Shown here: in pieces, positions 9,001 to 48,063 of the stretch
Layout of the letters: the number at the start of each line of letters is the position of its first letter
Position numbering within the stretch: the stretch's first letter is position 1
Assembly (NCBI GenBank): GCA_028707125.1
Contig: JAQTUX010000002.1
Span: 433,872-497,871, forward strand
Source: Candidatus Omnitrophota bacterium
GTDB lineage: Bacteria > Omnitrophota > Gorgyraeia > Gygaellales > JAQTUX01
Direction: 5' to 3'
Length of the DNA: 64,000 nucleotides
The notes under the pieces: generated by a model
The model's input: only the letters and a program-made list of their open reading frames with translations
Told to the model about the DNA's origin: nothing
Databases searched by the model: none
Made by a program: the position numbers and the translations under genes

Positions 9001-12000
9001 CAGGAAGAATATGAAATTCGGAATCCGCCCTGTCTTTCTTCTCCCGCCTCAATCCCTCTATATAAACATTTACCACTTTGTCTATATAAAATACCTTTTC
9101 AATAATATTATAGAGATTTGTGGTCTTTAATTCCTTTGACTTGGCATGTATCGCCTGTTTTTGCGCCTCACCTTCAAGGCCGCTTAATTCACACCAGTCC
9201 TTGATCAAGCTGACAAGCACCTTAGATGTGATCCTCGCGACCAATTCCTGTTTATTAAGCGTCCTCTTAGCGGTAAGGAACCCGAATAATCCTCCGCCGT
9301 TGCCGTTCCCTGAAGAGCTTGCCTTTGGATTATTTTCCGCTAACGGCGGGGCAATGCTTATGTTAACCCTGGGCTGATCTTTGGTGCCGTTTTGTATATC
9401 TATATGGATCTGCCGCAGTACATTTAATATCGCGGTTGCCAGATCAACTGTCTGAGAAAACACATCCATGCCGTCCAGGTCCTCAACAATGACCTCTTCC
9501 GGCATATCCAGCTTCCCGGAGGGAGTCAGGAAGGAAAATTCCAATCTGCCTCCGTTGTTTACGGCGGCCCTGGGTACCACTATACCTGCCTTGCCGGACG
9601 CGAAAAGCTCGCGCGCGCCTATGTGATCAAATCCGGGGAACATCGCTTCTATTTGCGCCGCGTGCGATGCTAATAACGGATGCAGCGTTACGCACGAATG
9701 GTCTAAATGCGGATTGTCTCCTATGGTTACCAGTATGGCATCGTTAAAATAATGCTGCATCTGATGTGACTCATAAAGCGCGTCATTTACAAAGGCGAGC
9801 GAGGCCAATTTAGTAATGGTATATTTCTCCTTCTGGTCTATCCTGATCAACGCTTCTGATATGGGATTGCCTTCCCTCCACCTGTTCCTTACCCTTACAT
9901 ACCTGAAACACTCCACCCCGTTGTCTCCCGCGAACATCACACCCATAACGACGAAGTCAAAATCATCAACGGTAACATCAAGCTGCCCTAATGAATGGGC
10001 CAAACCGCTGAATCCCTGGCTTTGCCTGAATGCCTGCAGCAACTCGTCTGTCGTATTCTCTTCCCGGATATTGACTACCGCGGTCCTGTCCGTATTAAGG
10101 CCGACAAAGTGCCTGCCGTTCCTTAAGCTTATAATTAACTCTTTCAGATCTGCTACCTTGGGGCTGTCATTGCTGTCTACCAAAGTATTATCTAAGTCAA
10201 TAGAGAATATCACCGGGATCTGAATGCCCTCCAGGATGCTATTTATCTGTTCGCGCATATCCTTCTGTGATGCCATACCAAGACGCGTGAGAAGCCAATT
10301 AGTAACAGATGAGGAAGATGATTCTCCCTGTCTCTCCTTATAGGCCTGTGTGTATTCCTCCCTGTCCTTTTCGCGTAAGCCGACATACAAGGCAAGCAGG
10401 CCAACCCCGAAATCCGCCCCCTCTGCGTGGTCCATAAACCACTCTGAGATCAGCGTCAGCGCGCGCTCTGTTTCTAAGAGCGCCGGCCCCTGGTCATTCT
10501 TGCCTAAGGCCTGCAGCTTATTCCTGATGACGGCCTTAAGATAAGCCGGCAGGCCCAGCAACGCGCCTTTTTTGAACGACTCCGCGCCTATACTGTGGTC
10601 AACGCCGAATGTCTCAAAATCTATCCGCTCATTCTCCCCGTGGAATTTCATCTTAAATAACACCCAACGTATAAAGTTTACATATGATTCTATCGCGGGG
10701 CCGGTAATGCCGCTGTTAAGAGGCCTGCCGTTCTCTAAAGTAACTATTTCCACCGGGCTATTATCTAATAATTGCTCTAAAGAAGGCATTGCCCTGCGGA
10801 CCGCGTATCTAATGGGATATGTGGTGGTTAAAATACTGAAATGCCTTCCTGCCAGTTCTCCCTCCTGAATCTTCATTTCCTTCTTAAGGGCATAAGACAG
10901 CGCGATCTCGTCGCCTTCCGGCACGTTATGGCCTCTATCGCGAAGGATACCCTCCAGCTTCATTATTTTATTGCGTATTATATCCACTGCGGAAGACGCC
11001 ACGGTCACCCGGTTCCTGCCGTTTTCCTTTGAAGCATACAATGCCTCTTTGTCTGCCTTATACTCTAATGTTGCCCGGTCATTGCCATGTTCCGGAACAG
11101 CGGCAACTCCCAGGCTTATAGTAACGTTAAGGGCCTCGCCTTTATATTCTATCTTGAGGTTCTCAACCGCCGCCCTTATTCTCTCGGCAACTATTTCCGC
11201 GCCTTTGGCATCAGTTTCGGGCAGTATTACCGCCATCTCTTCGCCGCCGTAACGCGCTACGAAATCATTGGGACGTACGGCATTCTGAATAGCCGCGGCC
11301 ACCGCCTTCAGGACTTCATCCCCTGCCTTATGGCCGTGTGTATCATTAAATCTCTTGAAATGGTCTATATCGATCATTATGAGTCCAACAAAATAACCTA
11401 CGCCACGGTGAACGGCGCGTTTGAGCTGCTTATCCAGCTCGGAGTCATACGCCCTCCTATTATTCAGGCCTGTCAAGGCGTCTGTGGATACCAGCCTTTC
11501 CAAGCGTTTTATCTTGTTATTAAGCGCCAAGTAAGTCGCGGCTGCTCCCATGACTATGCCGACTGCCACACCAACCACTACCGCCGAAGAACTTGGCTTT
11601 TCCGGCACAGCCACGCCTGATACGGAGTTTACCTGATCAGGCGTGGTCTGTGTGGTTGCCGTCGATGCGGTAGACAGGGATATGGTTGTTGCGGCTGAGC
11701 TGGACCTTGCCGCGGATGGTGTCTGCGTCTGTGCCTCCGACCTCTTCCCAGGATTCTGCTGTGCCGTTACGGGCGTAGACGCGGCCCGCGCCATCGTCAA
11801 ACACAAGGAAGATGCGGGTCTTTCCGCTGGGTTCCTTTCCCGCTCCGAATACTGTCCTGTCCTTGCTGAAGATGACGAGGTGGTCAAACTGGAACTCTGC
11901 GAAGTTGATCCTGCACATTTTAATGCACCTCCTTCAATTAAATAGCGGGCGCGCTCGGTGGGGGTCAGGCCCCGGAGGTATCGGGCCACCAAAGCAACGC

Positions 12001-15000
12001 CCGCTATTATATTTGCCGCTGTAATCACGAGCCCAGCCACGGGTAGGGTGATCCCTGGCGGCGAACTTGTTCTTTCTAATAATTCAAAGGCATTCCTGGC
12101 CTTTTCTATCCTCTGCTCATCGGTCAATCCTTCTTCTTGCGCCGCGGTCAGATTTACCATTACCGGAGAGACCTCTTCAATGACATGCGGCCTGGTAAAG
12201 TAGGCGTCATCCTGCGCGCCCAGGTAATTTCTGCACCATGCCTGCGTGACCATAGTTATGCGAACAGCATTGATGTACGGAAAGCGCTTATACACGAAAT
12301 CAGTTGCCCTGTAAATATCTTCGGAATTAAGAGGACCGTAGCCCAAATGCGTTGTGCCTTTAAGGCTAGGGTGGGTATGCGCCATTTCCAGGAGGTCTAC
12401 GAACTGCACGCCTTGTTTCTCATACAATTCGGCCAACCACTGCATTATATAATAAACAGGGATCGCGTTTCTTCCGCCTTCAATGAATCTGGTATGTGTC
12501 GCGCCCCCATATACAGCCGTGATCATCGCGACTTCGGTATTCTGGGTATTCCTCCTCTTGTTGCACTCTTTATGAAGAGCCCACAAGCGGACTGCCCTGC
12601 CAACCTCTACCTCTGCCGGTATGATCCTTATAACTGAACGCTGATGAAGTATAAGCTCATCTACATCTGCTCTGCTTATAATAGCTTCTCCGTCAAACGT
12701 AGTGGATTTCCCGTCTTTTCTGATTAATATGGGGTCAAATTCCGGAACTTCGTTATGAGGGACTGTTTTGAACAGCGAACCTGCGTATACACGAATTCCA
12801 CCTGCTGTTTGCTCTGTATTCTGCTCAACAGCGACAGGTGGACTGGTTTCGTAGCGCTCTATTACCGCGGAACTCGCAACAAGAACAGCGTCAGCCGCCC
12901 TTTGTAACTGTTCAACCGGCGGCAGGATCGGCGCTATATAGGCCTTTCCGGTGGTCGCACTGCTGGAACCACTGTTTCCGTTACCGGAACCTGAACTTAC
13001 ACTCTGGGCGCCTTGGCCTCTGCCTGTATTTTCCGCAGGCAGGCCTGATTCATTCGCGTTCTTGCTGTCTGCTACTGCACTTCCTGCACCTCTACGATCA
13101 ATATGTTTGCCCGCTTCTGGCTCGACGACCTGGCTTTGGGCAAAGCCAGCCGCCCCGCTTATCCCGCCTGCTCCGGTAGCGCTTGAGCTTCCGCTCAACA
13201 TGGCGAACATCTGGTCAAGCGGAATACCCATACCCACCGTGGCTGGCATGGGAAGTATTATCGGGCTCTGTAAGATTGTCTGACTTGCGGCCGAACCGGC
13301 TGTATTAGAAGGACTGTTACCTATATTATTGCCGCCTGTGGGCGCCTGAGGCATACCCAACGGTTGCTGCGAGCTGGCAGGCGTGCCTGTTGGTCCATCC
13401 TTGGGCGCCTGTTGGCTATTCTTTCTGGCTTTATCCCTGCCCGCAGAGAAAAATGACTTAAGCATGTACTGAGAACGGACCAGTATATCTGTATTCCCCT
13501 CAACTGTATACCGATACGGATGATCACCTTCAAGCGCAACCAGGGCATTACCTTCCGGAATCTTAAATTCACCTACGATTTCTCCTCCCTTGTACCAATT
13601 CACACCCATATGGCCGACTATTTCCGCGGCTTCATTTGTTCTCAAAACACGGAATTCTCCGCTGTATACTGATGCCCCCTTAGGATATACATCAACGACC
13701 AACGTCTCATGGCCTGTTCCCGGAGTTACATACAGGTACCAATGCGCGTCATTATTTACCAACTCTACTTCCCATGCCGGGTCAAATATCTTTAATAACT
13801 GGCCGAATACAGTGTTGCGGGTCATGCAGGCAGCGCCATCCGGTAAATACATATTAATATGCCCGTATAATGATTCCACGACCTTCTCTAACGCGTCGAT
13901 CCTGGTTATCGCGGTAATATCTTTTTGTTTCTTCAGGTTACTCAACTCACTTTCCGCGATGGCAAGATCATCTTCGGCATGAATGTCTTTAAATTGACTT
14001 ATCGCCTTATCATATAAATCTATCGCGCCAATTATGTCCCCTCTTTCTGCCAACACCCTGGCCTTCTCAACTTTTGCTTCTGCCGTTGAGCTGGAAACAG
14101 GGCCTACGGGCGTAAGGGCGATGCTGCCGTCCTGCTGAAGCGCTATCCTGAAGAAATGCTTTAAATCAGCGGTGCTGGCAAGGGCCTCCGGCGGTTGAAG
14201 CGCGCCGTTAACTATCGCCCCTATTTTCAGCTCTTCTCTGAGTACCAGGGGCTGCCCCTTATAATCGTCTATCGGGGTGCCGACAGGTATTATTTGCACC
14301 GGCCTGATATTCCACGGTTGGATATCCATCTCGCCGTTATTATCCAGGGTTACCTTAAATTCATTGTCTTCTTTATCAGCGGCCATTACCTCTTTTGTCA
14401 CTGATTTTATGCTGCCGTCCTTGCCCTTCAATATATTGATCTCGCCCTGCAGGATAAGCGGATGCTCATCGTCGCTGCTGATATTCTCTCCCTGCTTGCG
14501 GGTTATCTTTAAAGGCATAAATACAGTATGGCCGTCTTTGCCTGTTTCGCTTACAATCCAGGGATCACCCTCATTATCTACAAGGTCTATGGAATCAACG
14601 CCTGTCTTTCTCTCAAAACCGTAAGGAAGATATCCTCCGGCAGCGGGCCTTAACACCTTGCCGTCGTCCAGTTTTATCTCTGCAAGTATTGTTGCCTTAT
14701 CATCGTCAAGGCACAACCAGCCGTTTATCGCCGCTGCCTGCTGCCTGGCCTTTTTCTCTATCTGCGGCTCGGTCAATTTATCCTTATTCTGCTTAGCGTC
14801 ATTAACGGCGTTCAGCGCCTCCCGCGCCATTTCAACGCTCACCACGCCCTTATTAGCCGCGATCTTATCCATCATTTCATCTATTGCGGCTATGCCTGTC
14901 CTGGCTGCCGCGGGAAGGCCTTTAACCGTCGCCGCGATGCCCAATTTCCCAAACCTGCGCATATTCTGCCACAATAAAGGATTGATCCTCAATATACCCG

Positions 15001-18000
15001 CGTCTAACTCTATTATCTGTTCGGCGCCCTCTGCCAGGAACTCAACCCCCGCGGGCAACTGAGCGCCGCTTATGCCTAATTCCTTGAACAGGGCGGGGAT
15101 CAACAACTGCGTCCCTTTCTCAAAGCCCCTGGCCGTAATATCCTTACCGTCAACCTTGAGCGGCTGTTCAGCGATAACAGCGGTGGCCCTTGATATGGCC
15201 CTGCCGTCCAGGAACTGGAAGCCGTCCTCTGTCACCATTATCTGCATGCCCACGCGGAAACCCTCTGCTCCGGGTATTGAGAGGAACGGCTGGAGAGATA
15301 CTATGTCTCCGTTGCGGACGATGCCGGATAATTCAACCCTGTCGTCATAATGACCCATTGGGAAGCTGTGCCTTTCCTCGCTGCCGAATACCTCATGTAT
15401 CTTCTGCCAGAATCCGTAGCGGCTGCCCAGGCCGCGCCTGGAGGCGTTAAGTATCCTTCTCTCCTCCGCCTCCAACCCTTCTAATGCCGCCTCTTTTTCT
15501 TCGTCGCTGAGGCCCAACAGAGGTATTGATTTCTTCTTAAGCCTGATCTGCACCAACGCCTCGCCGCCTGCCATACCGGCAGCAGCCAGGCCCGAAAGGT
15601 CTTCCCAGGTAGGCGTAAAGGGATTCCTGAGATTATCGAGCACTGCCCAGAGCGCGTCATACTGCCTCAAATGCGCGTCTTTCTGAGTATGCGTGAGCCC
15701 GCTCAAACTCTCCTCAAAGCTGTCTCTGTTACCATTACTGTAATCTATCTCTTTAAGCTGTAGTTTAGCGCCTTCGCCCTTGACCACCGCGAAGACATAG
15801 GACTGGTCAACGCGCTCGCCGCCCACATCAACAACCGCGTCTAATCTAAAGGTATCGCCCGCCCTCAAATACCTGTCCGGGCCCTGGTAACCCATGATCG
15901 AGGTATTCCTTCCGGAAGATGCCGATGTATCCCGCTGCACGACTATCGCGGGGGCATCCTCGGCAGCGCTGCTGGAAGAAATCCCGTAGACCTCGTTTAC
16001 AAAGGCGCCTCTTAATTGCGCCCCGGTCATATTATTGTCTTCTGCGAACACGGCAACGACGCTATCCTTTGCCGCGTTGGATACCTCGTATGCCCGGCCT
16101 TGCAGGTCAAGCTGCTCCTGTGTCTTGAACTTAAGGCGGGATAATTCATAGTTGTGGGTAATGCCTATTGCCTGGTCGGCGGAAAGGCCGGCAACCGTCT
16201 CAAACACATTGGTGCCGGGGTCCTGCTTTGCCCTGTGCATCAAGCGCATAAAGTAAAGCGAGATCCTGTCATCTATGCCTGTCATAAGTTCGGACGCCAT
16301 ATTAATATAATCGGCCGCGGAAATGGCGCTTAACGCCTCGGTTATGACTTCGTTAGGATTATGCTCTTTCAGGTCAAGTGAATCAAGGTCCCAATCTTCA
16401 GCAGGATTGCCCATTCTTTGTTCTAACGCGCTAAGGAAAGGACGCGTGTAAGGATTGTTCCTCAAGGCATCCACGCGCGCCTTGTGCAGCTTCCTGGCGT
16501 AATCTACATCGGTATCACCCGGCATTCTGGTGACAGCGGCCTGTCCCAGCACGTTTTTAACTATGGAGTGGTCAAGTTCGTGAATAACATCGTGGATGCC
16601 TGTGGGATTCAACGAGATAGAGACGCTGCCGCCATCGTATCGCCTGGAGAACAGGTCTTGTCCGGCGTCTATCTTTATCGGCCTGGCCTCGTTCGGCTGG
16701 TTCTGCGCGGTTACCATACGGCCCTCATCCCAGAGCGTGCCGTATTCCACAAGCTCATAGGACTGCGTATCCATAAGCTGCCCGGCAGCCGTTGCGCCGC
16801 CGCCTAAATGCTGCGTAAGATAAGTCAGGGCAATGTTTCGGCCGTCTTTATTTACGTTCAGATTCAAAACCGGGATAAGCGCGTTATATACGCTCTTTGT
16901 GTCGTATTCCGCGCTGTTCTCCACGTTTCTTTTTACCTCAGCCAGCTTAACTTCGGCGTCATCCGCGCTCATACCTGTGCCTATAAATTGCTGTTTATAT
17001 GCATCGTGATTGCTTGCCAGGAAATCTAATGCCATCCTGCGGCTGATATATCCCTTATTCCTGCCCAGCAGTTCAAACTCCGCCTTCTGGCTGTAATGAT
17101 GCAGGGCGATCTCATCCAGGCCAACCATCTTCTTCAGCCCCCTGATATTCGTGAGCTGCTTTTCCCTCTTCTTAAGCTCCTTTAGTTTGTCCTTCCTGGT
17201 CTGGGCGTCCATCGCCGAGTTCTTAGCGATCTTGTCCCTTTCCTTAGCGAGCTGCTTCAATTCCACGCTGAACTCAGCGTCCTTAAACTCGCCATCTTCT
17301 TTCTGCAACTGTTCCCTTAATATGCCTCTGAGCTCTCCTGCCTTGCCCAGGCCCAGCCGCGATAAGCTGTACCAGTTCAACTGCAAGAGGCCTTTTCTAA
17401 AGAGACCCATATCCTGCCTGTTCACGCCGGCCAGCTCTTCTTCAAGCGCGCGCACGCCCATAACGCGCCTTGCCTCTGTTTCAAACCACTGCATCCTCTG
17501 CAAATGGCGGCTCTGGCCGCTGGTGAGGTATTGCGCGTAAGAATGCAGCATCTTTGCCTCTGCGTTCTCAAGCTGAGGACGCAAGGCGCGCGCTAGGGCC
17601 GACCTCCAGGTCACTTCATCCTGATAAAGCGAGCCGCCCGGAAGGGTATAGGCCGCTAAATTCCCCACCTCCTGCATAACGCTTCTGCTGAATGTCTCAT
17701 CCCCTGCCAGGCACTCTTCAACAATCGCCTGCGTATTTACCTTAAAAGGCAGGATGTGCTCATCCGCAACGTCTGAATTATACGCGCTGAAACCGTCATT
17801 GCTGATAATGATGACTTTTCTGCCGGTCATCGCCCCTGCTATCATCCTTGCCGCTCCGTCTTCGCCTTTAAGTTTCGCGGCGACAAACAGATTGGCTGCC
17901 TCCGCCCTTATGGGGTTGGTTTCCGTAGAGGCGCGCGCCTGTATCTCGGCGAGTTTCGCGTGCCTGTCTTCAGGCGCCGCTGCCTGATACTCTGCCTCCA

Positions 18001-21000
18001 GCGGCACCATTTCCGCCTGCGCGCCAAAGAACTCCCGCCATTTATTCTCGCTGCCTACTTCAAAAGTGCGGATATAGCCGTTCTCATCCACAATGATCTC
18101 GGTGCCCGCGGGCAGCCCCTCATCGGCGATTGCCTGGAGGGCGTAACGGTCGTTCTTCCAACTATCCCAATTACCGCCGGTCAGGCAATCCTCTGCTGCC
18201 GTCTTCTGAGAATCCATAGAGCCGCTGAAGCTCACGCCTATTACCCTGCTGTTCTGCCGCGACAAGCTCCTCTTCAGCGCCCAGGCGCTCTTGTAAGTAT
18301 TGCCGATGCCCCCTTCAGGGGTAAGGATCTCCTCTAATAACTGGACGTACTGCGCGGGCAAAGGCAGGAAATTAAGCAGCACGATATCTATTGCCGGCTC
18401 ATGCAAGCTCTCCTGCAGGGTGCCGTTGACAACCAGGGTGCCTAACCTCGCTCCCAAAAGCCGCGTCCTCTCCATAAAGCTCAAGGATGACTTGTTTGAC
18501 TGCTCAAAGACCTTCTTAAACGGCGTTTCAAACACCTCCAGGCCCTCTGCCAGCGCCTGGTATTTCGCCCCCATATTGGCGAACTTGATATTGGGGAAGG
18601 AATGGCGCGCCAGAGGGAACAGCAGATTCAGGGCGACGGCGAATGATACGTTGGACTTTTCCAGGTTCTCCCACTGATCTTTTAGAGAAGCATTCTCCAA
18701 TAATTCAGCAAAAGAACCGATCTTTGCCTTGCCGTCCTTCTCGCCGTATAATCCCACTGAATACGACCTGGTGAACATCTCCGCGGCGAATTTGACTATG
18801 TCTGTAAGCTTGTTAAATGAAGGATACCTGTCCAGTATGTCGCTGTAGACCTCTTTGGTGGCCTTGATGCCAAGCAGAGCAGCGTCTCTTTGCGTGATCC
18901 AGAACTGGCCTAATGTCTGAGACAGCAGGCCCTTGGCAAAATTGGTATATTGGGAGGGTATCATAATTTCCTGTGCCACGGCGCCGGTGGCTGTGATGGC
19001 GATATACAACGGCGCGATCACGCTGAGGATATTCCAGGCGCTTCTGGCGGTCACGTCATAGAACAGGCCCTTTGTGGCTGCCAGCCCTGTTCCGCCTATG
19101 CGCTGGGACAAAGAAGGTTTATTAATATCATATCTGCCGAAGGGATGGGCCAGCAGGCTCATCGCCCCCAACGCGGCAATAATCCCGCCGGTTACGCGCA
19201 GCGCCTCTGCCGGAGCCCTGCCCTTTAAGCTCAGGGCGTCAACTACCTTAAGGGCGGTTGTGTTTTCAATACCCAGGCCTTTCAGGTCGGCGCTGTCAAA
19301 GCTGCCCATAGCATACAACAGGCCGCCCGCTCCTATTAATCCCAGATCGCTGAACACCGGATGCTCAACGCCCCTTCTATACCAGCTGCTAAGGCTCTGC
19401 CGCGTGCCCTCCCACATACCTGACACGCCTTCTCTGATCGCGCCTGACTGTACCCGCTCGCCTCTGGCATTTGTATAGAACGCCTTTTCCGGACGGCCCT
19501 TCCTGTACGTCTCCCAGGCGCGGGCGCCGAATCTTGTAACGCTCTTAACCAGCGCGCCTTCAATAAGGGCAGTGGTCAAATCAGCCGGCATACCTTTATA
19601 TTCGCTGAACAGATGTGGCGTTGAGGCGTCTTTCCAGTTAAATCTTTCGGGATGGCGGCTGATCCAATTCTCGGTAAGCGACACCGCGGGGTCAAACACC
19701 GCTTTTTTGGCTCCGTAGACCAGGGCCGCGACTGATACGGTATCTATGGCAAAAGAAGCGATCCTGGGAGTATGCCTGGCTAACATTCCGGCTATGGCGC
19801 CTGCTGCGGCATAAGCAGCCAGATCCAGCGGCTCTGTAATATCATTATTATAAAAACCGTAACCCAGCCCGGCAGCCGCGCCCAACAAACCATAGGTAAG
19901 AGGATAACTTATACCCTTGGATGTATCCCAGGCCCTTTCTGTCCTGATAAAGCTCTCGCCGAAGACCCTGCTCAAACCTGACTTGGGATTGGAAACGACG
20001 GGGCTGAAGCGGATATTCCTGGCTAAAAGCATTCCGCCCAGGCCGCCGATCATCAGGCCGGCGTTGGCAACATAATTGGCGAAGACCGAATCTCCCTGTT
20101 CGCCGCTATGATACAACGCTAAACCGGTTGCCATCATCGCCGCCGGCGTAAGCACTGTGCGCTCTGCCGCGGCCTGGACAATATTGCTCTGCGCTATGGC
20201 GCGCGCAAGATTGGAATTGGCCGCCTTAAAGTATCCTGCCCCGGCAAAATTCCAGATCGCGGCAGCGCCGATGCTGGCAGAGGCCACCTTATCCAGGCCG
20301 TAGGCAACGTAGGCCGACTGGTTTTTGATCGCGCCCCACTTCTGGCTCCAGTCCTCTCCCTGCATAGGCCAGGCAGGGATGCCGATGCTCAAGGCCGTAT
20401 TCAGGCGCGTAAGGTTGGCCGCCTGATTGTAGACGCCGGCGGCAATGTAACCCCACTGCTGCGCGGCGGATAACTCACTGAATAACATGTTGCTGCCGTC
20501 TGCCATCCTCATCAGCCAATCGGTCTTCGTCTTACCGCTGAACAGCGGTCTACTGTAAGTCATTCCCAGAGGAGTATATTCAATGAAGACATTTCTCTCA
20601 GCCAGCAATCTTTCCGGCGCGTTAGTTGCTTTGGTTATCTGCCTGCCGGCATACCTGAAGCCAAGAACGCCCAAGGTGAAGCTGCCTGCCAGACGACCCA
20701 TGTTCGCGGGATTGGCCTTTATCTCTTCGCCTATGCCGGCGGCGATCTGAGGCATTATCGTAGAAAGGGTTAATGCCTGCTTCAGGGTCTCTAAAGGATT
20801 GGAAAACGCGTAAATGGTGTAGCTGTGGCTTGCCGCCTGTAATGCAAGATCAAGCGCTCCCGCGACATAGCCGGGGATGAAGGCGTAATACCCGAATTTT
20901 TCATTCATCGCCTGGTCAAACGCCTTGCGCTCTTTCAGTTTAACCGCGTCTACCCTGCCCTCAAGATTCTCGCCAAAACCCATCCTGCCTGCCGAGGCGA

Positions 21001-24000
21001 TCAACGTCCTGCCCGGGTCCAGCATAATGCCGCTTATCTGCGCTCCCCAGCCCAGGGAATTCACCAGAGGACGATACATCTCATCCTTGGCGATCACGGT
21101 TGAGCCGGCAAGAAAACCAAGTGTGTTTTTAGTCAAGCCGGTCATTTCATCAAAACCCCTGCCTAATGCCTTTGGATAATAAACGGCAAGGTCTTTTGCC
21201 TTTACGGCAAGACCGCGGCCGTAATCTAATCCCTTATATACCCGCAGTAACAGGTTGTGGACTATCTGCGGATTATTTTTTATGGCGGGGATAAGAAAAT
21301 TCAGCGCCTTGCCGCCTGCCCATGACACTCCTGCCAGCGGAAGAGTGACCTGCAGGCCCTTAAGATGCAGGGCTAATTGGCCTGATAAACTGTTCGGCAG
21401 CTTCCAGGCATCTTCTTTGCCGCGGTTCTCTATGCCGTTAAGAATGTATCCCGCGGCCGCATTAAATGTAACTATCTCCGCGATCTTGAATAGCGCCTTG
21501 GCCTCTGCGCTATACTTGCTTACAAGGTCCATTGCCAGCCGAGGAGTGTTGAGCGCGATGACGGTCGCGGCGCCGTAGCCAAGCGACCTTCCGGCTTCAG
21601 ACCAGCTGTCTAAACTCCAATCCTTTTCATAGAGGCCTTTCTCCGCGTAGCCGATAACAGGGGCTGCCAAGGCGTTAAGCGTTATCTGCGGATGCTTCGT
21701 GACAAAACCTGTAAGCTTCGCGGGTATGCCGCGGCCATACCACAGGCCGTTGGCTATGCCGACGGTGGCTGCGCCGTAGGCCCCTATCTTTCCTATGTCA
21801 GATAAACTGTCTATACTCCAGTCATTTCCGAATACGCCATTTTCAATATAGCCAACGACAGGAACGGCTAAGGTGTTAAGCGTTGCCTGCGGGTGCTTGG
21901 TGACAAAACCGGCGACATTCGCGTAGAGCTTCGGCGCCAATTTCATTATGGCCGTTCTCCAGCGATACCCTCCCAAAGCCGGCAGAGTGACCATAAGCCC
22001 TTTAAGCGACAGATCTATAAGATCAGAACTGCTGTTCGGCAGCTGCCAGGCATCATCCTGGCCGCGATTCCATATTCCGTTTACTCCGTATCCGCTGGCG
22101 AGGGTGCCCGCGGCCGCGCCTGTGGTCCAGAGCAGGCCTTTACCGGTTTTGACTAAAACAGGGTATTGGCTTAAGAACCCGAACATCTTACCTGGAATAT
22201 TGCGTCCGGCATACAGCAGGTTGGCTGCCACTACAGTCGCGCCGCCATAAGCGAAGGTCTTGCCGGCGTCAGACCAGCTGTCCATGCTCCAGTCCTTATC
22301 ATACAGGCCCTTTTCCGCGTAACCGACAACAGGGACTGCCAAAAGATTAAGCGACAACTTCGGATGAGCCGCGGCGCTGCCGCTCACCACGCCTATCTTT
22401 GAAATACCCTTGATTATAATGCCGTTCTTATCAAGTATCTGCCGGATTTCGGGAGTATTGATACCTTTTGTAATATTGTGCTGGGCCTTGACTGCCGTGG
22501 CCGTCCTTAAAGCGCTGTCTCCGGTCTTGAAACCGGCTTTATAAGCGGCCTTTAACAACGGCTTTGTAATGGCGTTGGCTGCTTCCTGCACGTTCTCTCC
22601 GCGCATGCCGCCGGCAAAACCAGAAGCAAATTTCATTATGGGCTTTCTTAACAGATACGTCGCCAAAACCGTCAAGGTAATCGGCAGCCCCTTAACAGAC
22701 AGGTCTGCTATATCCGAGATGCTATCCGGCAGGGCCCAGGCGCCATCCTGCCCGTGATTCCATATACCATTCACTGTATAGCCGGCAACAAGATTACCTG
22801 TTGCTACCGCGCTGCTCCAGAGCAGCCCCTTGGCAAGCTTGCCGGAAACATTATATTTTCTGGCGAAGTCCCCTATCATCCCGGGTATGCCGCGGCCATA
22901 CCACAGGCCGTTGGCTATGCCGACGGTGGCTACGCCGTAGGCCCCTATCTTGGCTATGTCAGACAAGCTGTCTATGCTCCAGTCGTTTCCGAATACGCCC
23001 TTTTCCGCGTAGCCGATAACCGGAACGGCCGCGATGTTAAGCAACGGCCGCGAATGGAGGCCGGCCCAGTTCATTACGCCGGCAGACATCCTTCCTACGG
23101 CGCTCGCATTCACCCACTTAATGCCTGCCTTTGCCCAGCTGCCAGCATAACTACCCGCGCCTTTCAATATCTTCCATGTGCCGCCAGCCAGGCCCCTGAC
23201 AGCAGATACGCCTAATCCCTGATATAGATACGTCTCCGCGACAGTGCCCACGCTTTCGCCTATTGTCATCGGCCGGCCCAGGTATTGCGCGCTGTTATAA
23301 TGCCCGTAGCCAAGGAAGGCGCTCGTCCAGAAAGGAACTCCCGGAGCGCTGGTCGCGCTCTTTATCAGATTACCTGTTGCCGTGCTTGCCCTGTATAAGA
23401 AGCCGGCTCTGCCCGTTATCTCCGCTCCCGCAGCCCCCCAACCCAGGAATTTAGCGCCCAAAGAAGTGCCCATCTTGCTGCCGGCGCCCGGGAGCAGGAA
23501 TGTCGCCGCCAGCAAACTATCCTCTCCGAATGATAAAGGCCTGCCCTGATATTGCATAGATGCCCAGTTAGCCGCCACATCTGTGACGGCAGCGGCTGAA
23601 GGGATCATCAATCCCCTCGCGCCGACACCCAGCTTAAGCAACTGGCTGCCGTAATATACTTCAAGAAATGTCTGTCCTGCCTTGCCCCAGTATCCGATAC
23701 CCCTCACCCAGGGATTTTCAGATTGCAATGCGGAATTCATCGGGCTGTATCCTTTTGTCCAGGCATCTTTCCCGTAGGCGCCGACGTAGTAGGCATTATT
23801 GAACCAGTAAGGCGCGGCATCAGAACCATGCAACCTGCCTAACGTCTTATCATAGGCCCATACGATCCCGCCGATGCCATACTCTATGCCGCTCTGCCCA
23901 TACGTCAGGCCGGAGTTCAAGGCGCTGCCTACCGTGTTTATCGCAGCCACTATTTCCTGAGAACCGCCAAGGGTGTATAACTTCACTGATGTGCCGTCGG

Positions 24001-27000
24001 ATTTGCGCAGTTCCCAGAATCTCCAGTTTTCATCCGGCAGGCCTTTTGTATCAATGCCTTTGCCGTCCGCGGTCCTGATCATCCTTCCTATCTCTGCGTC
24101 GCTGTATATGTAAGGCCCGGCGCTTGTCAGCATAAGCAGGTGATTCTCTTCAAGGGCCCCGATTGCCGCGCTGCCCGTATCCGCTACCGGCCTCCAGGCC
24201 CTGCCTAAAGCCCCCCTTGGCCTGCCGCCTTCGTCAAAATACAGCACACCCTGCGCCCGGCCGGTGAGGGGATTGACCTGCGCGCTGCCCGGGGCGATCT
24301 GCCACAAGACATCCAGACCCTTCTTGTCCAAAGCAATATTGACATGACTGCCCGGTTCAACAAGTGAATGGTCAGCGATCGCTTCCTGCGCTCTCGCGAT
24401 GTCCTTCTGCGCGTTAAGCGACATATTGGAAAGGATATCGCCTATAGAAAGCTGCAAGCCATAGGCGTCTTCGGGAATATTGCTTGCAAGGTTACGCAGG
24501 TCTTTCATATCTTCGGGAATACTGTTGATCAATTCCTTTTGTTTCTGCGAAGCGGCATCCTTCTTGCCCGTATTGATATAAGCCAATAACTCCATAAATC
24601 CCTGCTGCACTCCGGGAAGGACCTTATCCAATTTTTCTTTTTTCTGTTCGGCGTATTTCAGGTCACCCTTGAGCTGGGCATTCCCGATCTCTATGGCCCT
24701 GGCCTGGTCCTGTGCCGTGTATTCCCCTTTTACCGGGAAGATGCCGTTTCGGGCCTCCCATTCACTTTGCGCGGTGCGGGCAGAGGCGATGGCCTGCGCG
24801 GATACCTGCTGGCCGCTGATCAGGTCCCAGCCCCTTCCCAAACTGTCTACGATTATGTTCCCGTAATTGTCTGTAACACGCGCCTCTTCCGCGCCATTCT
24901 TCAGTACGATAGCGGGCTTGCCTTCTGTGGCCTTATCATCCACGACCAATAATATGCCGCTGCCGGGCGCGCCCAATTCCCTTGAGACAAAATACTTTTC
25001 ATTATTGACAAAGGTTACCAGGCCCATCCCGTTCTCGCCGGACTCAAGGGAGGTGCCCGCGGGGACCGCCTGATTGAGCGCGGCAAGGTAAGGATCAAGC
25101 GGTATGGAATTGACGAGCGCCTTGCTGAGCGCTGCTATGGCAGTGGGCAGGGCCGTCCCGGACGGAGCCAAGGCCGCCTTTAATTGCGCCGCGAGGGCAA
25201 CGCCGTCGGCGTCTCCGTATAACTTGAATAACTCCTCTGCCTTATTTATGTTCTGCAGAGCGACGTCATTTTTGCCGTTATTGTAATTGTATAAAGCCAG
25301 ATTGTAGAAATTATCAGCCAGGCCTATTACATTCCTGCCGGTATCGTAGGCGTTGTCCGCGCGCGTCTGCGCGTCCGCGTACCTGCCTACCTTAAGATAA
25401 TACTGCGTTAACTGTTCATCAACGATCGCCTGCGGGGCAAATGCCTCGCCTACGATGCTCTTAAGCTTATCCTTATCGCCTGCCGCCAATTCCTTGTATT
25501 TGCCCCAAGTTATCTCCTGGGATTTATCCGGCCCGAACTTTAACACGGCATCCTTGGAATATTCCACGAGATAGGTCAGGTCAGATATCTCAAGGGTGTC
25601 GGTGTTTACTATGAACGCGTGGTCCCACTTGCCGTCCTTGTCCATATCGCCGTATGCCAGGCGCAAAGGTATGCCCAATTTAACGGCTATCGCCGCGCCC
25701 TCGGCGTTAAAGTTAACGCAGGGGCCGAGCATCTCCTGCTTGAGCTTGTCGTTATATTTCATCTCGGTGAAGATGAAGCTTACCAGTTTGCTGTCATTAT
25801 CCACTTCAGCCCTGAGGTTCTCAACATTAAGTTCTCCTCTGGCCTTCAACTCGTCTATCTTGTCATAGACCGGCTTTGATTCCGCCGCGCCTATCCTCTG
25901 TATGGCCGGCTCATTGGCGATCAAAGGAAGCAGGACATCCAGGACCTTGCCTATGACCCTTTCAGGCAGGACAAATTCCGCTTTTAAGGGGCTTTCATCC
26001 AGATTGGTAAATCTGGCTGTGAAGGGGCTGCTCAATTCCGATATGGTTCCGTCCAAACTTATGGACCCGACTCCGGATATGGCATTTCCGTCAACGCCGA
26101 TCCTGTCCTTGACCTCCCATGCATCAACCACTGCTTTTGAAGGAAGGCCTACTCTTGTCATGCCTGTAACCTCTACCTTACCTTCGGCGTTGGTGTAGAG
26201 TTTTGACCCATCCTTTATAACATCAAGATAGGCGTCTATTGTGTCCGCGCCCTCGGCATCCTTGCCTTTACCTATATTATATGTAAGCGCCAGCTCCTCT
26301 GCCCTGTATCCGCCCACGTTCACCGTGCCGTCCTTTGCCTTGAATACGTGCAGGATGAGCTGGCCCAGATCATCCGTGCTCTTCAGATGATGTATACCGG
26401 TGAAATAGGACAATTGCCCGTTCTCGTTAAAATATATGTTTGAGCCGTTGGCAGCCAAGAGGTCTGCGGTAGGAAGCCCTAAAGGACTGACGGCCTTCGC
26501 GTATACAGTGTTATCTCCGGCGTTATTCAACAGCTTGAGCCCCTGCGTATCCTGGGATATGGAGCCGTTCAGCAGGCCGCTGAGGTTGACATTCAACCAC
26601 TGGTCTTTACCCATAAGCATGCCGTTGGCGGTGTCCCTTACCATCTCCACCTCGTGGAAATTGGTCTTGGCCTTATGAAGGGCATCATATTCCGCGTCAA
26701 AGGCCTGCCTCAATTCAGCCGGCTTATCGGCAATACCCGCCCTGGCATCCGCCACATCATTGACGAGCTTGGCAAGCTCTGTCTTCTGGTTCTTTACATG
26801 TTCAAGGTATGCTTCATCCATTTCCTCCACGGACAGATCCTTGTGCTCTGCTTCAAACTTGCTCCTTGCCTCCCTGTCTGATTCAGCGATGTTCTGGAAT
26901 ATGTCCTGCACAACGGCAAGGGTCAGCCTGTCATTTGCCATCTGCGCGGGCGGCAGGAAAGGAGCCAGGCCCTGCGGCTTCAACCTCAACATACCCACCT

Positions 27001-33000: not shown

Positions 33001-36000
33001 CAATACTGACCGTGCCCTTTACCGAAGCAGGGTCTATTGTCGCCTTGCCGTTAATATCGTATGCCGCCTCCCAGTAGGCACCCGAAAATTCCATGTTACG
33101 CGTCTTTAGCTTTCCGTCGGTATCCTTTACCTGATAATCCAATGATGTTGAAACCGGCGCCTCGGGGGTGGCGATCATAGGATCAATAAAGGTTATCGCG
33201 CCCTTGTGGGTCTTCACGTAATCCTGCTTGTTATCTACGCGGGACTGGAATTTATATCCCCAGGCGTTCAATGTAGCCCCTTCCTTGAAGTTAACCCTGG
33301 TATTGTCGCGGAAAGTAGTCGAGTAATCGAAACCGGGAGCTGATGTCGAACTCATCAGGGATATCGGATTGAACAGCACATAACCGTCTTTCTGGAAACG
33401 ATGGCTGTTGCCATCAAAATAAAGTATGTTCTCCGCGCTGCCTAAGTTTTTCTCTCCCTTAAGGTCGGTAAAATACGGCTGGGCATCTGTCTGGACCTTT
33501 GGAACGCCGTTAACGGCTAAATTGTCTTCATCGTTAAACTCAATCTGCCTTCTGTCAGCGCCTTCAACGAAGTAACTCTGGGCGATAACCGACTTAAGTT
33601 CATTGGCATTGTTTATTGCCTTACCTGCCTCTACCGGCCGCGCCAGCATCAAATTGTCCGTTGTTGTCTTGAACGGCTCTAATTTCTTAAGTTCAATATC
33701 CTGCGCGTTGCCGTTATTGTCAAACTGTGTCGTAAAATCGGCCTTGATGTCCGCGCTGGCAAACTCTGCCACCTTGCCGTCATTTATCTTAAAGGACAAC
33801 GCGTTCATGGCAAATCTGTCCTCTAAGAGGTTCTTTCCTGAACCGCCCACAAGCCTCTTGGTAAAGGTGGTATCTCCGTTCCATTTGTTTATGCGCTCAA
33901 TGTCAAGGGAAGCTACGGCGTTGCCGGCAACGGCTATCTCGCCTGTGGCATGGTAAAGCGCCTTGAAATTATCTTCGGGCTGGATCCTGAGGGAACCGAA
34001 AGGTATGCCTTCTTTAGGGGCGTTCCTAAAACTAAGATCTATGTTGTTCCTGTGAAGCGTGCCGCTCCAGTCAACGTTCCAGCCGTAGCGCGGGTCATGA
34101 GGCACCTGGACCAGTATGCTCGCTCCGGCAGCCGGGGTGAATTCCGTATTGTCGGCCTTGTAATCTTCAACAGCGGCGTTGCGCACAACCTTACTTAATT
34201 CCGCGGGAATTTCAGTAGTGGCTGTCTGGTTCTTGTTGACCGCCCTCTCCTTTCTTTGCGCCCACTTGTTATCAATCTTTGCCAGATAGCCGGCGGCCTC
34301 ATACTGTTTATCCGGCAAGGCCGATATGGAGACCAATTCGGGAGGCAGCTTGGCGATTATACCGTCTTTTATAAAGGATTGGGGAATATCAACGGCAGGC
34401 ACAGGCACCTCTCCTGTCATATCCAGGGTTAATTCCAAATAAGGCGGCTCGCTGGAATCCTTAAGGCGCATGTCCAGCATTTTAAGTTCGCCGTTTAATT
34501 CAAAGGGGCGCGTGCCTGTGGCCAGGTCATGCTTCTCTTTAAGATATATATCCTTGAAAATATTCTTTCCCTGTTTAACCTCACCCTGGCGGAAATAGCT
34601 GCTTTCAAAACCGCCGTACACTATGCGGTCTGCCGCCTTATTGTAGGCGATGGTAAAATTCTGCCCCGGCAGCTCTCTATGTATATTCTGACCGACCAGT
34701 AAGTTGTTCTTACCGGTTATGTTATCAACGATGCCGATGATACCCTGGGTGAGCACTCTTTCGCCCTCGGGATTGATCACGTATCCTCCCAGATCCCTGC
34801 CATTCTCATAACTATGCTGATGCACGATCTGCTTGCCAAGTATCATCTCATGTCTGAGCCCCTCTGATACATTGATGCCGCCGAAGGGAGTGGTCGGCCC
34901 GATCACGGCGTTAACGCGCATCCTGTTGTCTCTTCCGTTGCCTTCAAATATAGCAAAGTCGCCCTTGCTGTTGGGGATCATATTGATCTTATCGGACTTA
35001 GCTATCGTTTCATAGTCGGCAGGCACGTTGGGCTTATTAGCGGCGCCATAGCTTGCAATGTGGCGCTGAAGATCCCTCACCGCTGCCTGGTGCTCAAAGG
35101 GGTCGGAATATGCCGGGTCAAGTTTTACGATGTCTCCTTTCCAATTACTGTCAAGCGCCGCGGCTTGCAGGGTATTCTTATCAGCCGTGTCCGCGGCAAC
35201 GAAGTTCTGAGGAAGAATGTTCAGATCGCTTACGTGCGCGCCGATGCCGTTACTGAGGACAAAATCGCTGGCGGCCTGGCCTCTCTCATTCCATGTTTCA
35301 ACCCCTAATATCTCACCTGTCTTGATCAACCCGGGTATGGCATTCTTCTTTCCATCTAATGCCTTCCAGCTATACTGGGCGCGGCCCGCGGGCAGGATGT
35401 CTTTGCTTTCTCCGGGAATTATAGTATCAAACATCTTGCTGAAGAAAGACCGCTTGATATCGCTGTCCCGGTTGGGATCTCCATCCAGGAGTTTCCCGTT
35501 CTTGTCAAATAATACGCCGCCGTTGCCGCCGAATGAAAACACCCAGCTGCTGTCCGGCCTGACCAGTTTTTGATCTATCTTGGAAGATATGTTTTCGGGG
35601 ATTATTATTGATTTATCCTCATACTGGAAGCCGCGGTGCTCGGTTATGCCGCCCTTGTGCATTTTTATCGCGCCGGCTATGACCTCTTTGAACGAGCCGT
35701 CCGGGTTGAAAAGCACGGAACCGCTGCTTGGGCCCCAGATACTGTTACCCACAACGCGCCTTACGTTCCCCGCGTCAGACCAGGCCCATTTCTGCTGATC
35801 TATGTCCCAGGCCTTCTGCCGGGACATATCCAAAAGGAAAGAACCGCCTTTATCCGTATCAAAACGGTGGTATATTATCTTTTCAGGCAAGATGCCTGTC
35901 TGGGACAGGCCCGCGTGCAATGTCTGTGTAAGTATGCCGGAAGCCGATGAACTCAAGGTCGTGCCGGTATATTTTGCCCAGCCGCTGAAGGCGTTTGGCA

Positions 36001-38338: not shown

Positions 38339-38346
38339 AGCTTATC

Positions 38347-39243
38347 CTAAAATCCGAACGTCCCTCCCCGCATAAATTGCAACAATATCGGCCCGGCCAC
38401 CATGATCAAAACCATCGGCAGAATGCAAAACAACAAGGGAAACAGCAATTTGATCGGCGCCTTCAGGGCCATCTCTTCCCCGTTCTGAAAACGCCGTATG
38501 CGCATCTCTTCCGACTGTATCTTCAGCGCCTCTCCCATAGGAGAACCCATCCTGTCCGCCTGAAGCAGCGTCCTTGTGAAAGACGACATCTCTACCATGT
38601 TGACCCTGTAAGAAAGGTTCTTCAGCGCCTCCCTCCTTGTGCGGCCCACCTGCGTCTCTCTATACATCATCGCCAGCTCTTCAGTTAGAGGGCATTTCTT
38701 AAAATCCCTGATGACCCTGCCCACCGCGAGCATAAAATCAAGGCCGGCGCCGACGCACAGGTAGAGCAGGTCAATGACAAAAGGCAGGTCTCGTGATATG
38801 GACCTTTGCCTCTTTTGCACCCGGCTCCTTAACCAGAGGTCAGGAAGAATAAACCCGATCGCCAAGCCCGCCGCTATATACAGCGGCCGGTTAAAAAATA
38901 TTATGGAAACAACAATGCCTGCTAACGCGGTTGAGACAAACTTGAAGCTAAGGAACTCCAAAGGATTTAAAGGATATCCCGCCATAAGCAGTTTCCTCTC
39001 CAACCCCTTTAATTTAAGGCGCTTGCTTAACGGCCTGACAACAGGCAGGAACGCGTCAAGAAATTTGCGCAAAGGGTTCCTCTCCCTTTTTTCGGATTCA
39101 AGAGCGGCGATATCCAGGCTTTCCTGTTCATCCTCGGAAAGATACGCCTCTTCTCTTTTGGTAAAAGGAGACGACAGCTCAAAGGCGAGAAGGACTATCG
39201 CCGTAAAAATAAGGCAGTACGCGGATATCAATAATATGCCCAT
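38347..39243 (-). CDS. tadC: Tad pilus inner-membrane platform protein TadC (T2SS-F/GspF-like domain)
   Basis: 298-aa track ORF with 3+ TM segments and a GspF-like core. It lies directly downstream of tadB, and its stop sits 8 nt before the giant-ORF start. Confidence 0.8.
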   Translation of the reverse strand: MGILLISAYCLIFTAIVLLAFELSSPFTKREEAYLSEDEQESLDIAALESEKRERNPLRKFLDAFLPVVRPLSKRLKLKGLERKLLMAGYPLNPLEFLSFKFVSTALAGIVVSIIFFNRPLYIAAGLAIGFILPDLWLRSRVQKRQRSISRDLPFVIDLLYLCVGAGLDFMLAVGRVIRDFKKCPLTEELAMMYRETQVGRTRREALKNLSYRVNMVEMSSFTRTLLQADRMGSPMGEALKIQSEEMRIRRFQNGEEMALKAPIKLLFPLLFCILPMVLIMVAGPILLQFMRGGTFGF

Positions 39244-39244
39244 C

Positions 39245-40093
39245 TCACACCTCTACCTTGCTGAACTTCATAATTAAAAATATACCTATTATATAAAGCG
39301 CGGCGCCCCCGCCTAAAAGCATCTGCCCCATCTGGTCGTTAAGCATTACCTCAAAAAAGGCGTTGTTCATGGTATAGACAAAGAACCCGAAGGCGATCGG
39401 CAGAATACCCATGATCGTGCCTTGGAGCTTCCCCTGGATGCAGAGCGCGTTGACCTTGCCTATAAGCTTGTTCCTTTCCCTTATGGTAGTCACCAACTCA
39501 GAAAACGTGTCGGTAAGGTCTCCGCCGGATTCCCTGGCCACAAGTATCGCCGTATTGATCAGATCAAGCTCATCGATCGGCATCCTCTTCTTAAGATTGT
39601 TCAAGGACTGCTCAAGCGGCATACCCACGCGGTTCTCCCTCACCACCAGCCCGAACTCCTGAGATACGGGCGCGGGCATCTCTTCAACTAATGCCTCAAA
39701 TGCCTGAAGCAAGCTCAGGCCCGCCTTAAGGGAGCCCGAAAGGATCATCAAGGCGTCAACCAGCTGCTGGGAGAACATTTGCCTGCGTATCCTCTCCATC
39801 TGCTTTATAACCAAAGTAGGCACTATGAGCCCGATGAAACCCGCAGCAGCGGCAGCGAGTATATTACGGAAAACCAAATACGCCCCGAACGCCAGGACAA
39901 CGGGTATTAATACATCAAGGACCATGATCTTGTTAATGGGCAGGTTCAAAAACATCCTGTCAAGCTTAGGCGCGTATTGTTCCATGCGCCTCTGGCGCTG
40001 CCTTTCATACAGCTCTACTGCCAGCGGTATGCACTCATTAATAAGCAGCCCCACCGAACCAAAACTCAGGATAAATATGGCGAATTTGATCAT
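39245..40093 (-). CDS. tadB: Tad pilus inner-membrane platform protein TadB (T2SS-F-like)
   Basis: 282-aa track ORF with a GspF-like domain and TM segments at both ends. There is a 1-nt gap to tadC. Confidence 0.8.
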   Translation of the reverse strand: MIKFAIFILSFGSVGLLINECIPLAVELYERQRQRRMEQYAPKLDRMFLNLPINKIMVLDVLIPVVLAFGAYLVFRNILAAAAAGFIGLIVPTLVIKQMERIRRQMFSQQLVDALMILSGSLKAGLSLLQAFEALVEEMPAPVSQEFGLVVRENRVGMPLEQSLNNLKKRMPIDELDLINTAILVARESGGDLTDTFSELVTTIRERNKLIGKVNALCIQGKLQGTIMGILPIAFGFFVYTMNNAFFEVMLNDQMGQMLLGGGAALYIIGIFLIMKFSKVEV

Positions 40094-40452
40094 TCCTGCT
40101 CCTCTTGTCCGTCTTCCGGTTGTGTCGCGCTTACGTATTCTCCGTGCAACCTGTCGTAATCCTCAACCTCTGTAAATTTGTTGCTATGCATTAGTTCCGA
40201 AGATGCTTCATCCGGCCCGTCTACGTTTACAGCGTTGCCATATAACCCACTTAGAACTTCGCTGCTGATCGGTTCAGAGGCCCCAGGGTCGGTTGTCACT
40301 TCATACTGCCAGCCGAAACCGATCGCGTCTGCGGCAGTCCGCCACCTTCCCTGCATAGCGCGCTTAAGGTAGACCTGCATGGTCATGACCGCCGCGACCA
40401 TCACGATCACCAACACGCAATACTCAATCGCACTGATACCTTGGTTTTTCAT
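40090..40452 (-). CDS. Flp/TadE-type class III prepilin-like protein (MKNQG/ISAIEY…)
   Basis: Carries the G/XXXXEY prepilin-peptidase motif followed by a hydrophobic helix and 'MQVYLKRAMQGR', which is shared with the paralog array. Confidence 0.65.
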   Translation of the reverse strand: MKNQGISAIEYCVLVIVMVAAVMTMQVYLKRAMQGRWRTAADAIGFGWQYEVTTDPGASEPISSEVLSGLYGNAVNVDGPDEASSELMHSNKFTEVEDYDRLHGEYVSATQPEDGQEEQE

Positions 40453-43228: not shown

Positions 43229-43256
43229 TTTATCTCACCTTCCATCTTTATGATCC

Positions 43257-43604
43257 TTAATCCCTGTGTAACGCGGGATTTTCCCGGTCAAAAACATAAA
43301 GCGGCTTTGCTGTATAAAATCCTGTTGACCAGGGGTATAATCTCTGGCGCCTTGTACCTCTCCCTAATTCTTCATCATCTCTTTTCTCGTTCTCTACTGT
43401 CGTCATGTTAAAAATCCTGCCCGACTGATAGTCGGTATGCCTGTATTTGAAATTATTGCTAAACCAGAGCAGGATATTGAACGTCCCCAAAAGCAGAACC
43501 ACAAAGGCGATAAAGGCAACCGTTGATTCTATGGTTACCTGCCCCGTACCTTTACCACGGACCTTCAACCTTATGCCCTGTTGCCCATCCCTTATCTTTA
43601 TCAT
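43257..43604 (-). CDS. TadE-like pseudopilin (…GKGTGQVTIESTVAFIAFVVLLLG…); start probably at internal Met ~43604
   Basis: Class III signal-peptide-like N-terminus. The track ORF 43257..43643 overlaps the upstream gene, so the likely true start is the internal Met. Confidence 0.45.
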   Translation of the reverse strand: MIKIRDGQQGIRLKVRGKGTGQVTIESTVAFIAFVVLLLGTFNILLWFSNNFKYRHTDYQSGRIFNMTTVENEKRDDEELGRGTRRQRLYPWSTGFYTAKPLYVFDRENPALHRD

Positions 43605-45178: not shown

Positions 45179-45188
45179 CTTTCCTTCC

Positions 45189-45650: not shown

Positions 45651-45692
45651 AGCTGAACACTCCCTGTGAAGTTAAAACTGCCATAAAACACT

Positions 45693-48061: not shown

Positions 48062-48063
48062 CG

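Follow-up and report, generated by a model that had tools for sequence, protein, structure and literature searches.

Giant genes of the Omnitrophota are known to encode proteins with an N-terminal Peptidase C39 domain, many transmembrane (TM) helices and cell-wall-directed domains, and they have type II secretion system (T2SS) or Tad genes as neighbours (West-Roberts et al. 2023, 10.1101/2023.11.21.568195). Among long proteins of at least 10,000 amino acids (aa), 80% of the sequence clusters are singletons, Peptidase C39 defines the largest architecture cluster, and repeats inside giant genes are usually ancient duplications in which the nucleotide tandems have dissolved (Nielsen & Lui 2026, 10.64898/2026.06.07.730766). 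Here we describe a repeat block (21257-23056, minus strand) inside a giant gene of a Candidatus Omnitrophota bacterium, located on a 64,000-nt stretch of contig JAQTUX010000002.1 (assembly GCA_028707125.1) that as a whole is called the window in the following. With a probability of roughly 70%, we regard this block as an old, lineage-specific internal duplication in a Tad-associated, C39-type giant gene.

Judged by its sequence, the gene that harbours the block belongs to the typical C39-type giant genes of Omnitrophota and is associated with a Tad operon. Like the published representatives, it encodes more than 10,000 aa, begins with an N-terminal anchor that is followed by Peptidase_C39, has several clusters of candidate TM segments, and contains a peptidoglycan-directed domain, here a Peptidase_M23 with a weakly matching PG_binding_1. 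It also starts directly downstream of tadB/tadC among Omnitrophota neighbours, is sequence-unique past its N-terminus, and contains an internal repeat that has lost most of its nucleotide similarity. Unlike published giants, most but not all of which have a SecA DEAD-like domain, it shows no SecA_DEAD domain (PF07517), no dockerin and no TSP3 repeat in Pfam searches of the visible 12,780 aa, while its C-terminal part lies beyond the window.

The repeat block and the history of its units

In the 38.3 kb of the giant gene that are visible in the window, all DNA self-matches detected by blastn fall into the block, as do all internal repeats with E < 1e-5 at the protein level, and the block thus is the only internal repeat of the visible gene. 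It accounts for 4.7% of the visible protein (600 of 12,780 residues) and consists of seven units of two kinds, four A units of ~69-75 aa with the motif VPVIGYAEKG..DWSxDSxSD and three B units of ~80 aa with the motif GLLW..NGIWNxGQDxAWxLP. As delimited by alignment and hidden Markov models (HMMs; i-E, independent E-value), the features are, in the direction of translation:

21257-23056, minus strand: whole repeat block, aa 5096-5695, order A1-B1-linker-A2-B2-A3-A4-B3
22832-23056, minus strand: A1, aa 5096-5170, begins HSRPLLNIAAVPVIGYAEKGVFGNDWSIDSLSDIAKIGAYGVATVGIANGLWYGRGIP, HMM i-E 1.2e-43
22592-22831, minus strand: B1, aa 5171-5250, begins KGLLWSSAVATGNLVAGYTVNGIWNHGQDGAWALPDSISDIADLSVKGLPITLTVLATYLL, HMM i-E 6.7e-45
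22367-22591, minus strand: unique 75-aa linker from B1 to A2, aa 5251-5325, without counterpart elsewhere in the block
22142-22366, minus strand: A2, aa 5326-5400, GLYDKDWSMDSWSDAG subtype
21896-22141, minus strand: B2, aa 5401-5482, closest relative of B3
21689-21895, minus strand: A3, aa 5483-5551, an A unit without a following B unit, mosaic
21494-21688, minus strand: A4, aa 5552-5616, GLYEKDWSLDSWSEAG subtype, 7-aa deletion in the second helix
21257-21493, minus strand: B3, aa 5617-5695, most diverged B unit (NGIENRGKEDAWKLP)
22882-23000, minus strand: A1 side of a high-identity patch of 119 nt, containing an exact 50-nt tract at 22882-22931
21721-21839, minus strand: A3 side of the same patch, 119 nt, containing the exact 50-nt tract at 21721-21770

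When the visible protein is searched with HMMs of the A copies and of the B copies, precisely the seven units are returned (i-E values of 1e-34 to 1e-46), and nothing else. The motif patterns agree with this count: [VP]P[VI][VI]GY[AI]E[KN]G ... DWSxDSxS[DE] is found at four places, beginning at aa 5106, 5336, 5493 and 5563, and NGI[WE]N[HR]G[QK][DE]xAWxLP at three, namely aa 5191, 5421 and 5635.

An earlier note on this stretch had described the region (as 21300-23100, corresponding to aa ~5080-5680) as a near-identical tandem array with a period of ~570 bp, made of about 3.5 copies of a ~190-aa unit with two alternating sub-motifs and with about 95% DNA identity between some copies. The repeats inside the giant frame are real and both motifs are present, but the block is not a near-identical tandem array, and its four A and three B units form repeat units of irregular length, about 230, 157, 69 and 144 aa. 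There is also no ~570-bp period. Successive A-to-A distances are 690, 471 and 201 nt, the off-diagonal blastn offsets are 201, 642, 672, 690, 1161 and 1362 nt, and Tandem Repeats Finder (TRF) reports no long-period array, neither in a standard run nor with a maximum period of 2000. The self-comparison of the DNA that the note had proposed thus yields strong off-diagonal matches, but no constant periodicity. The matches score 202, 106, 105, 79, 63.5 and 55 bits, whereas 100 codon-shuffled versions of the block reach at most 25.6 bits, and the similarity within the block is therefore beyond chance.

Regarding the degree of identity, the figure of about 95% holds approximately for a single core, in which 111 of 119 bases are the same (93.3%; A1 22882-23000 versus A3 21721-21839), but not for whole units, which are 49-65% identical in their DNA for most pairs and 78% identical for A1/A3. 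The best local DNA match is likewise A1/A3, with 87.2% over 164 nt, and the longest exact match of the block is the 50-nt tract of this pair, followed by a match of 19 nt. At the protein level, A1 and A3 are 71% identical over the whole unit and 76-80% in local alignments, A2 and A4 54% and 61% (the latter over 56 aa), B2 and B3 44% and 62%, and B1 and B3 34% and 41%. The nearest local match of A2 among the A units is A4, with 78.5% DNA identity over 135 nt, and its whole-unit identities to A3 and to A4 are similar.

By the method of Nei and Gojobori, the synonymous divergence (dS) is 0.9-2.0 or saturated for all unit pairs except A1/A3 (0.54), and the ratio of nonsynonymous to synonymous divergence (dN/dS) is 0.22-0.50 throughout. 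Saturated dS together with low dN/dS indicates that the duplications are old and that the copies are under purifying selection.

How may such an arrangement have come about? The pairing of A1 with A3, A2 with A4 and B2 with B3 fits the duplication of a super-unit and a subsequent loss. An ancestral A-B-A'-B' super-unit would have been duplicated, giving these three pairs, and a B unit plus linker between A3 and A4 would have been lost thereafter. A B unit is indeed absent at this position, and the missing ~163 aa, by which the offset of A1 to A3 (387 aa) exceeds that of A2 to A4 (224 aa), fit the loss of a B unit together with a linker. Alternatively, A3 could be a 201-nt tandem copy of A4, because the 15 residues ahead of A3 and of A4 are nearly the same (GFVTKHPQ[AI]TLN[TA]LA).

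Under either history, the sharply delimited 93% patch requires a later event at the cores of A1 and A3. Unit A3 is a mosaic, as its core resembles A1, which is 1161 nt away, and the sequence preceding it, the end of B2, resembles that before A4. The A1/A3 identity per 30 columns is 37, 57, 63, 90, 87, 97, 100 and 50, and the A2/A4 identity sinks to 63 and 40 in exactly those columns where A1/A3 reaches 97 and 100. At one side the patch ends abruptly, from 30/30 identical positions to 14/30 and 6/30, and none of 20,000 permutations of the mismatch positions reaches an identical run as long as 50 nt. We infer that the 119-nt patch is a short gene-conversion tract, and such an event would have homogenised the A1 and A3 cores after the duplications. 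The idea of a target of a diversity-generating retroelement was rejected, as no reverse transcriptase domain is present among the ORFs scanned, and the A1/A3 mismatches (C/T, G/A, CC/GA, T/C) are not adenine-specific.

The host gene and its relatives

The features of the giant gene, of its product and of the surroundings are:

1-38338, minus strand: visible part of the giant gene, ATG at 38338, more than 12,780 aa, C-terminus past the left window edge (open frame)
aa 10-32: N-terminal anchor of the giant protein, RKK followed by a hydrophobic segment (hydropathy)
aa 177-255: Peptidase_C39, PF03412, E 1.9e-08, above the gathering score (Pfam)
about aa 6380, 6438, 8768, 8922 and 10083-10505: TM candidates (hydropathy)
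about aa 8952-9111: GGDEF, E 9e-48 (Pfam)
about aa 11073-11112: PG_binding_1, weak match (Pfam)
about aa 11191-11291: Peptidase_M23, E 8e-29 (Pfam)
38347-56127, minus strand: complete Tad-like pilus/secretion operon, directly upstream of the giant gene
50532-52691, minus strand: fusion of TadZ (ParA/MinD-like) and TadA/CpaF ATPase
52701-54311, minus strand: secretin with C-terminal TonB_C domain
61702-63993: NHL-repeat beta-propeller protein

On the minus strand, the open frame runs from 38341 to 1 over 12,780 codons without a single stop and leaves the window at its left edge. Its first ATG, at 38338, is separated from the tadC stop by 8 nt, and an AGGA overlaps this stop. Most of the giant protein has no detectable homologue. 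A 153-aa antisense ORF inside the repeat block (22754-23215, plus strand) most likely represents no more than a shadow ORF opposite the giant frame.

The topology of the giant protein is contradictory. According to the positive-inside rule, the anchor (RKK and hydrophobic N-terminus) predicts that aa 33-6380 are outside. If one then counts the four strong TM candidates at 6380, 6438, 8768 and 8922 from this outside position, the GGDEF domain would be placed outside the cytoplasm as well, which is implausible. Hydropathy scales yield about 9-11 TM candidates in total, and the parity clashes with the GGDEF position. Within aa 1-9111 (window ~11000-38338), either one TM segment was missed or one was falsely predicted.

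The upstream operon encodes a peptidyl-prolyl isomerase, RcpC/CpaB, the secretin-TonB_C fusion, the TadZ-TadA fusion, a DUF192 protein, an ORF with a transposase-like helix-turn-helix (HTH), small ORFs, and TadG-like, TadB and TadC proteins. The ORF with the transposase-type HTH at its N-terminus (48467-50065, minus strand, 532 aa), which is located in a stretch of lower GC (0.44) and for which the similarity is weak and below the Pfam cut-offs, may be the remnant of a mobile element. Farther away, over positions 56000-64000, the GC content drops to 0.38-0.45, compared with about 0.52 in the giant gene, and this region codes for a TPR protein, a GT2 glycosyltransferase and a spermine-synthase-like protein of 783 aa.

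As to relatives of the locus, the TadZ-TadA fusion is 58-65% identical to its best 80 relatives, almost all of which are encoded in metagenome-assembled genomes (MAGs) of Omnitrophota. We took these relatives and their Tad loci for comparison, and none of the 80 loci holds an open frame of at least 1,500 aa within 10 kb; a tblastn search of them with the giant protein gave generic GGDEF and M23 matches only. With its N-terminal 1,499 aa, the giant protein matched five C39 proteins (26-34% identity, E 8e-36 to 5e-25), two of which are named Omnitrophota or Omnitrophica. One of the five is encoded in a syntenic TadG-TadB-TadC locus, L081 (ENA ERZ1286166 contig_28, 2.15 Mb; 10001-25631), where the alignment with the giant protein is confined to its first ~270 aa. 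In L081, ORFs of 491, 653, 46, 1079, 389 and at least 2758 aa come back to back after the C39 protein (1876 aa), and this region looks like a giant gene that is split by frameshifts, possibly due to long-read errors.

The repeated module and its stability

The residues that are invariant among the copies cluster in predicted loops, PVxGYxExG....DWSxDSxS in A and GY..NGI.N.G...AW.LP.S.S in B, and the invariant A positions in and around the loop are P12, V13, G15, Y16, E18, G20, D25, W26, S27, D29, S30 and S32. As the invariants are positioned in loops, the array is less likely a spacer than a small multivalent module for binding or packing. With low confidence, we thus suggest that it may be such a module, with conserved aromatic and acidic loops, in a non-membrane part of the protein. 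The two kinds of unit have a weak core in common, GY..G..(D)W..DS.SD, and the basic unit may therefore be a single helix-loop-helix of ~75 aa that is present in seven copies.

Relatives of this module did not emerge from our searches. Neither the block nor aa 4500-6300 gave a match in a word-indexed search of 5.8 billion proteins, and an exhaustive profile search of 1.84 billion representatives gave two, both of which were rejected as unrelated, highly repetitive proteins that sum up many weak stretches. Nucleotide-level pattern scans did not find the A motifs in GTDB genomes or JGI metagenomes, nor the B motifs in JGI metagenomes. There was no usable match in Pfam at E <= 10, in NCBIfam or among PDB sequences, and nothing usable in PHROGs, which was searched with a tape-measure-like protein in mind. 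A search with the N-terminus from the window missed an identical cut product of 1,246 aa that is present on a Logan contig, and protein libraries therefore probably contain too few internal fragments of giant genes, which makes the silence of these libraries weaker evidence.

What else could the block be? It could consist of Gly/Ala/Trp-rich helices that insert into membranes as hairpins, either as TM segments of the giant protein itself or as a module for insertion into a prey membrane. The composition would be compatible with this, as G (12.3%), A (13.0%) and W (2.8%) are enriched and E and R are depleted, the block being net basic. Nineteen-residue windows with a Kyte-Doolittle value of at least 0.8 make up 11.3% in the block versus 6.3% protein-wide, and there are small-xxx-small helices such as GAYGVATVGIANG. 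Moreover, an odd number of missed TM segments before aa 6380 would resolve the topological contradiction, and published giant proteins have many TM helices (10.64898/2026.06.07.730766). However, no 19-residue window of the block reaches a Kyte-Doolittle value of 1.6, and no glycine-zipper or TM family of Pfam matches, even at E <= 10. On the Hessa scale, the values of which are reportedly those of Hessa and colleagues from 2005, the lowest 19-residue sum is +5.6, whereas the strong TM candidates in other parts of the protein have 0.1-2.9. By both scales, the helices of the block thus appear too polar for TM helices that are inserted by a translocon. Ordinary TM helices are unlikely on these predictions, and membrane-inserting hairpins are improbable as well.

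A different view, implied by the earlier note, is that of a recombination-prone "stalk" of variable length, in which the number of units shifts between strains by slipped-strand events or unequal recombination. In line with this, A1 and A3 are joined, 1161 nt apart and in frame, by the exact 50-nt tract and the 119-nt patch, the mosaic A3 and the missing B unit testify to past rearrangements, and a sister strain exists, as indicated by a Logan contig from SRR22315506 that is 99.2% identical to positions 37974-39730, outside the block (14 mismatches in 1757 nt). Against it, most copies are only 49-65% identical in their DNA, with saturated dS and a dN/dS of 0.2-0.5, a regular period is lacking, there are just seven small units in 4.7% of the visible protein, and the second-longest exact match is merely 19 nt. 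The block thus is probably not a hypervariable tract of the contingency type, and a length-variable stalk finds no support in so small a fraction of the protein, which is predicted to be helical (with low confidence) and is without near-identical units. We consider such a stalk unlikely. The slipped-strand-prone array of the note is not supported, as divergence, irregular spacing and purifying selection characterise the copies, and the sole substrate for homologous recombination is one exact 50-nt tract; its suggestion of recombination is borne out by the marks of past intragenic events, the mosaic A3 and the missing B between A3 and A4, but not in the sense of high-frequency slippage.

For RecA-dependent recombination, about 25-30 bp of identity are the lower limit for efficient exchange. 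The 50-nt tract is above this limit, so that A1 and A3 may rarely recombine. Such an exchange would delete or duplicate 1161 nt in frame, i.e. 387 codons, at low frequency. One may go further and speculate that A and B are an undescribed family of helix-loop-helix repeats that bind a cation or a prey cell-wall glycan, and that the 50-nt tract drives the 387-codon deletions and duplications. This combination is a long shot, and if true, episymbiont populations would contain variants of the giant protein that differ in their number of binding units.

An assembly artefact, in which 1161-nt super-units were collapsed via the 50-nt tract or the patch is a chimera of reads from both copies, could be imagined because an exact 50-nt repeat would exceed common k-mer sizes, so that coverage and spanning reads would set the traversals of a de Bruijn loop, and because the same organism is otherwise seen only in short Logan contigs, but it is very unlikely, as the frame is open throughout the block and for 38 kb, the units all differ from one another and keep to the reading frame, the two 50-nt tracts have different flanks, and an independent Logan contig (SRR22315508) matches another part of the locus with 100% identity over 11.4 kb (34601-46038, outside the block). 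Collapse is not indicated, since all units can be distinguished by ordinary reads, and the copy number in the assembly is probably right. Formally, one risk is left, namely that a de Bruijn loop via the 50-nt tract could hide extra 1161-nt super-units.

Several points weigh against the reading of the block as an old, lineage-specific internal duplication. None of the library, genome or metagenome searches revealed a homologue of the A/B module. AlphaFold2 models are mainly helical and unusable, with a predicted local distance difference test (pLDDT) score of 48 for one A-B unit (from a four-row alignment) and of 35 for the whole block (from the single sequence), and the helix-loop-helix nature of each unit is only weakly suggested, by a weak secondary-structure prediction together with the sequence pattern. 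The relationship between A and B is suggestive at most, with an hhalign E of 0.014 over 29 columns and an HMM i-E of 0.098. The side of the membrane is conflicting, as the N-terminal anchor argues for "outside" and the TM parity counted back from the GGDEF domain for "inside". The two histories of A3, loss of a B unit or tandem copying of A4, are indistinguishable, and either may apply. Finally, the 50-nt tract permits rare 1161-nt events, and some population heterogeneity is thus possible.

Even with these points, the block is genuine, though an ordinary feature for this known kind of gene, and the module that it consists of is unnamed. As an old internal duplication, it represents one more case of the known Omnitrophota pattern, in which a duplication persists as protein architecture and the nucleotide similarity decays, and it provides a dated record, with internal controls, of how duplication, deletion and gene conversion acted within a giant gene. 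Across the visible 38 kb, it is also the only site at which rare in-frame recombination or mis-assembly of short reads could take place. The loop-centred conservation singles out a small orphan module, which may be a binding site, in an otherwise unannotated stretch of 6,000 residues.

Comparison with known repeat systems

In the tandem-repeat-scaffold class of giant proteins, one Pfam family dominates by copy number (Nielsen & Lui 2026), whereas the units described here match no Pfam family at E <= 10. Repeats of this kind would therefore not be counted in the Pfam-based repeat classes of the published papers.

Among short repeated folds, the calcium-binding EF-hands and F-hands of dockerins likewise consist of a short helix, an acidic and serine-containing loop and a second helix, arranged in tandem. 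The loop D-W-S-x-D-S-x-S-D of A would place D, S, D and D at positions 1, 3, 5 and 9 of such a hand. At position 12, however, A has K or R, whereas the EF-hand ligand at this position is Glu or Asp. Membership in the EF-hand/dockerin family was rejected due to this residue and because no Pfam model of the family matches at E <= 10, and the resemblance is one that emerges from reading the sequence.

With the repeats of adhesins (Rib/alpha-C, Bap, and the stalks of the SiiE/BIg type), the block shares the principle of in-frame protein units within a very large, putatively surface-associated protein, and one of its copy pairs carries a high-identity DNA patch. Adhesin arrays, however, vary in copy number, are arranged head-to-tail with a fixed period and are usually more than 95% identical in their DNA over whole units, whereas the units of the block are irregularly spaced, 49-87% identical and saturated at synonymous sites, and they are predicted to be helical, in contrast to the beta-rich units of the adhesins.

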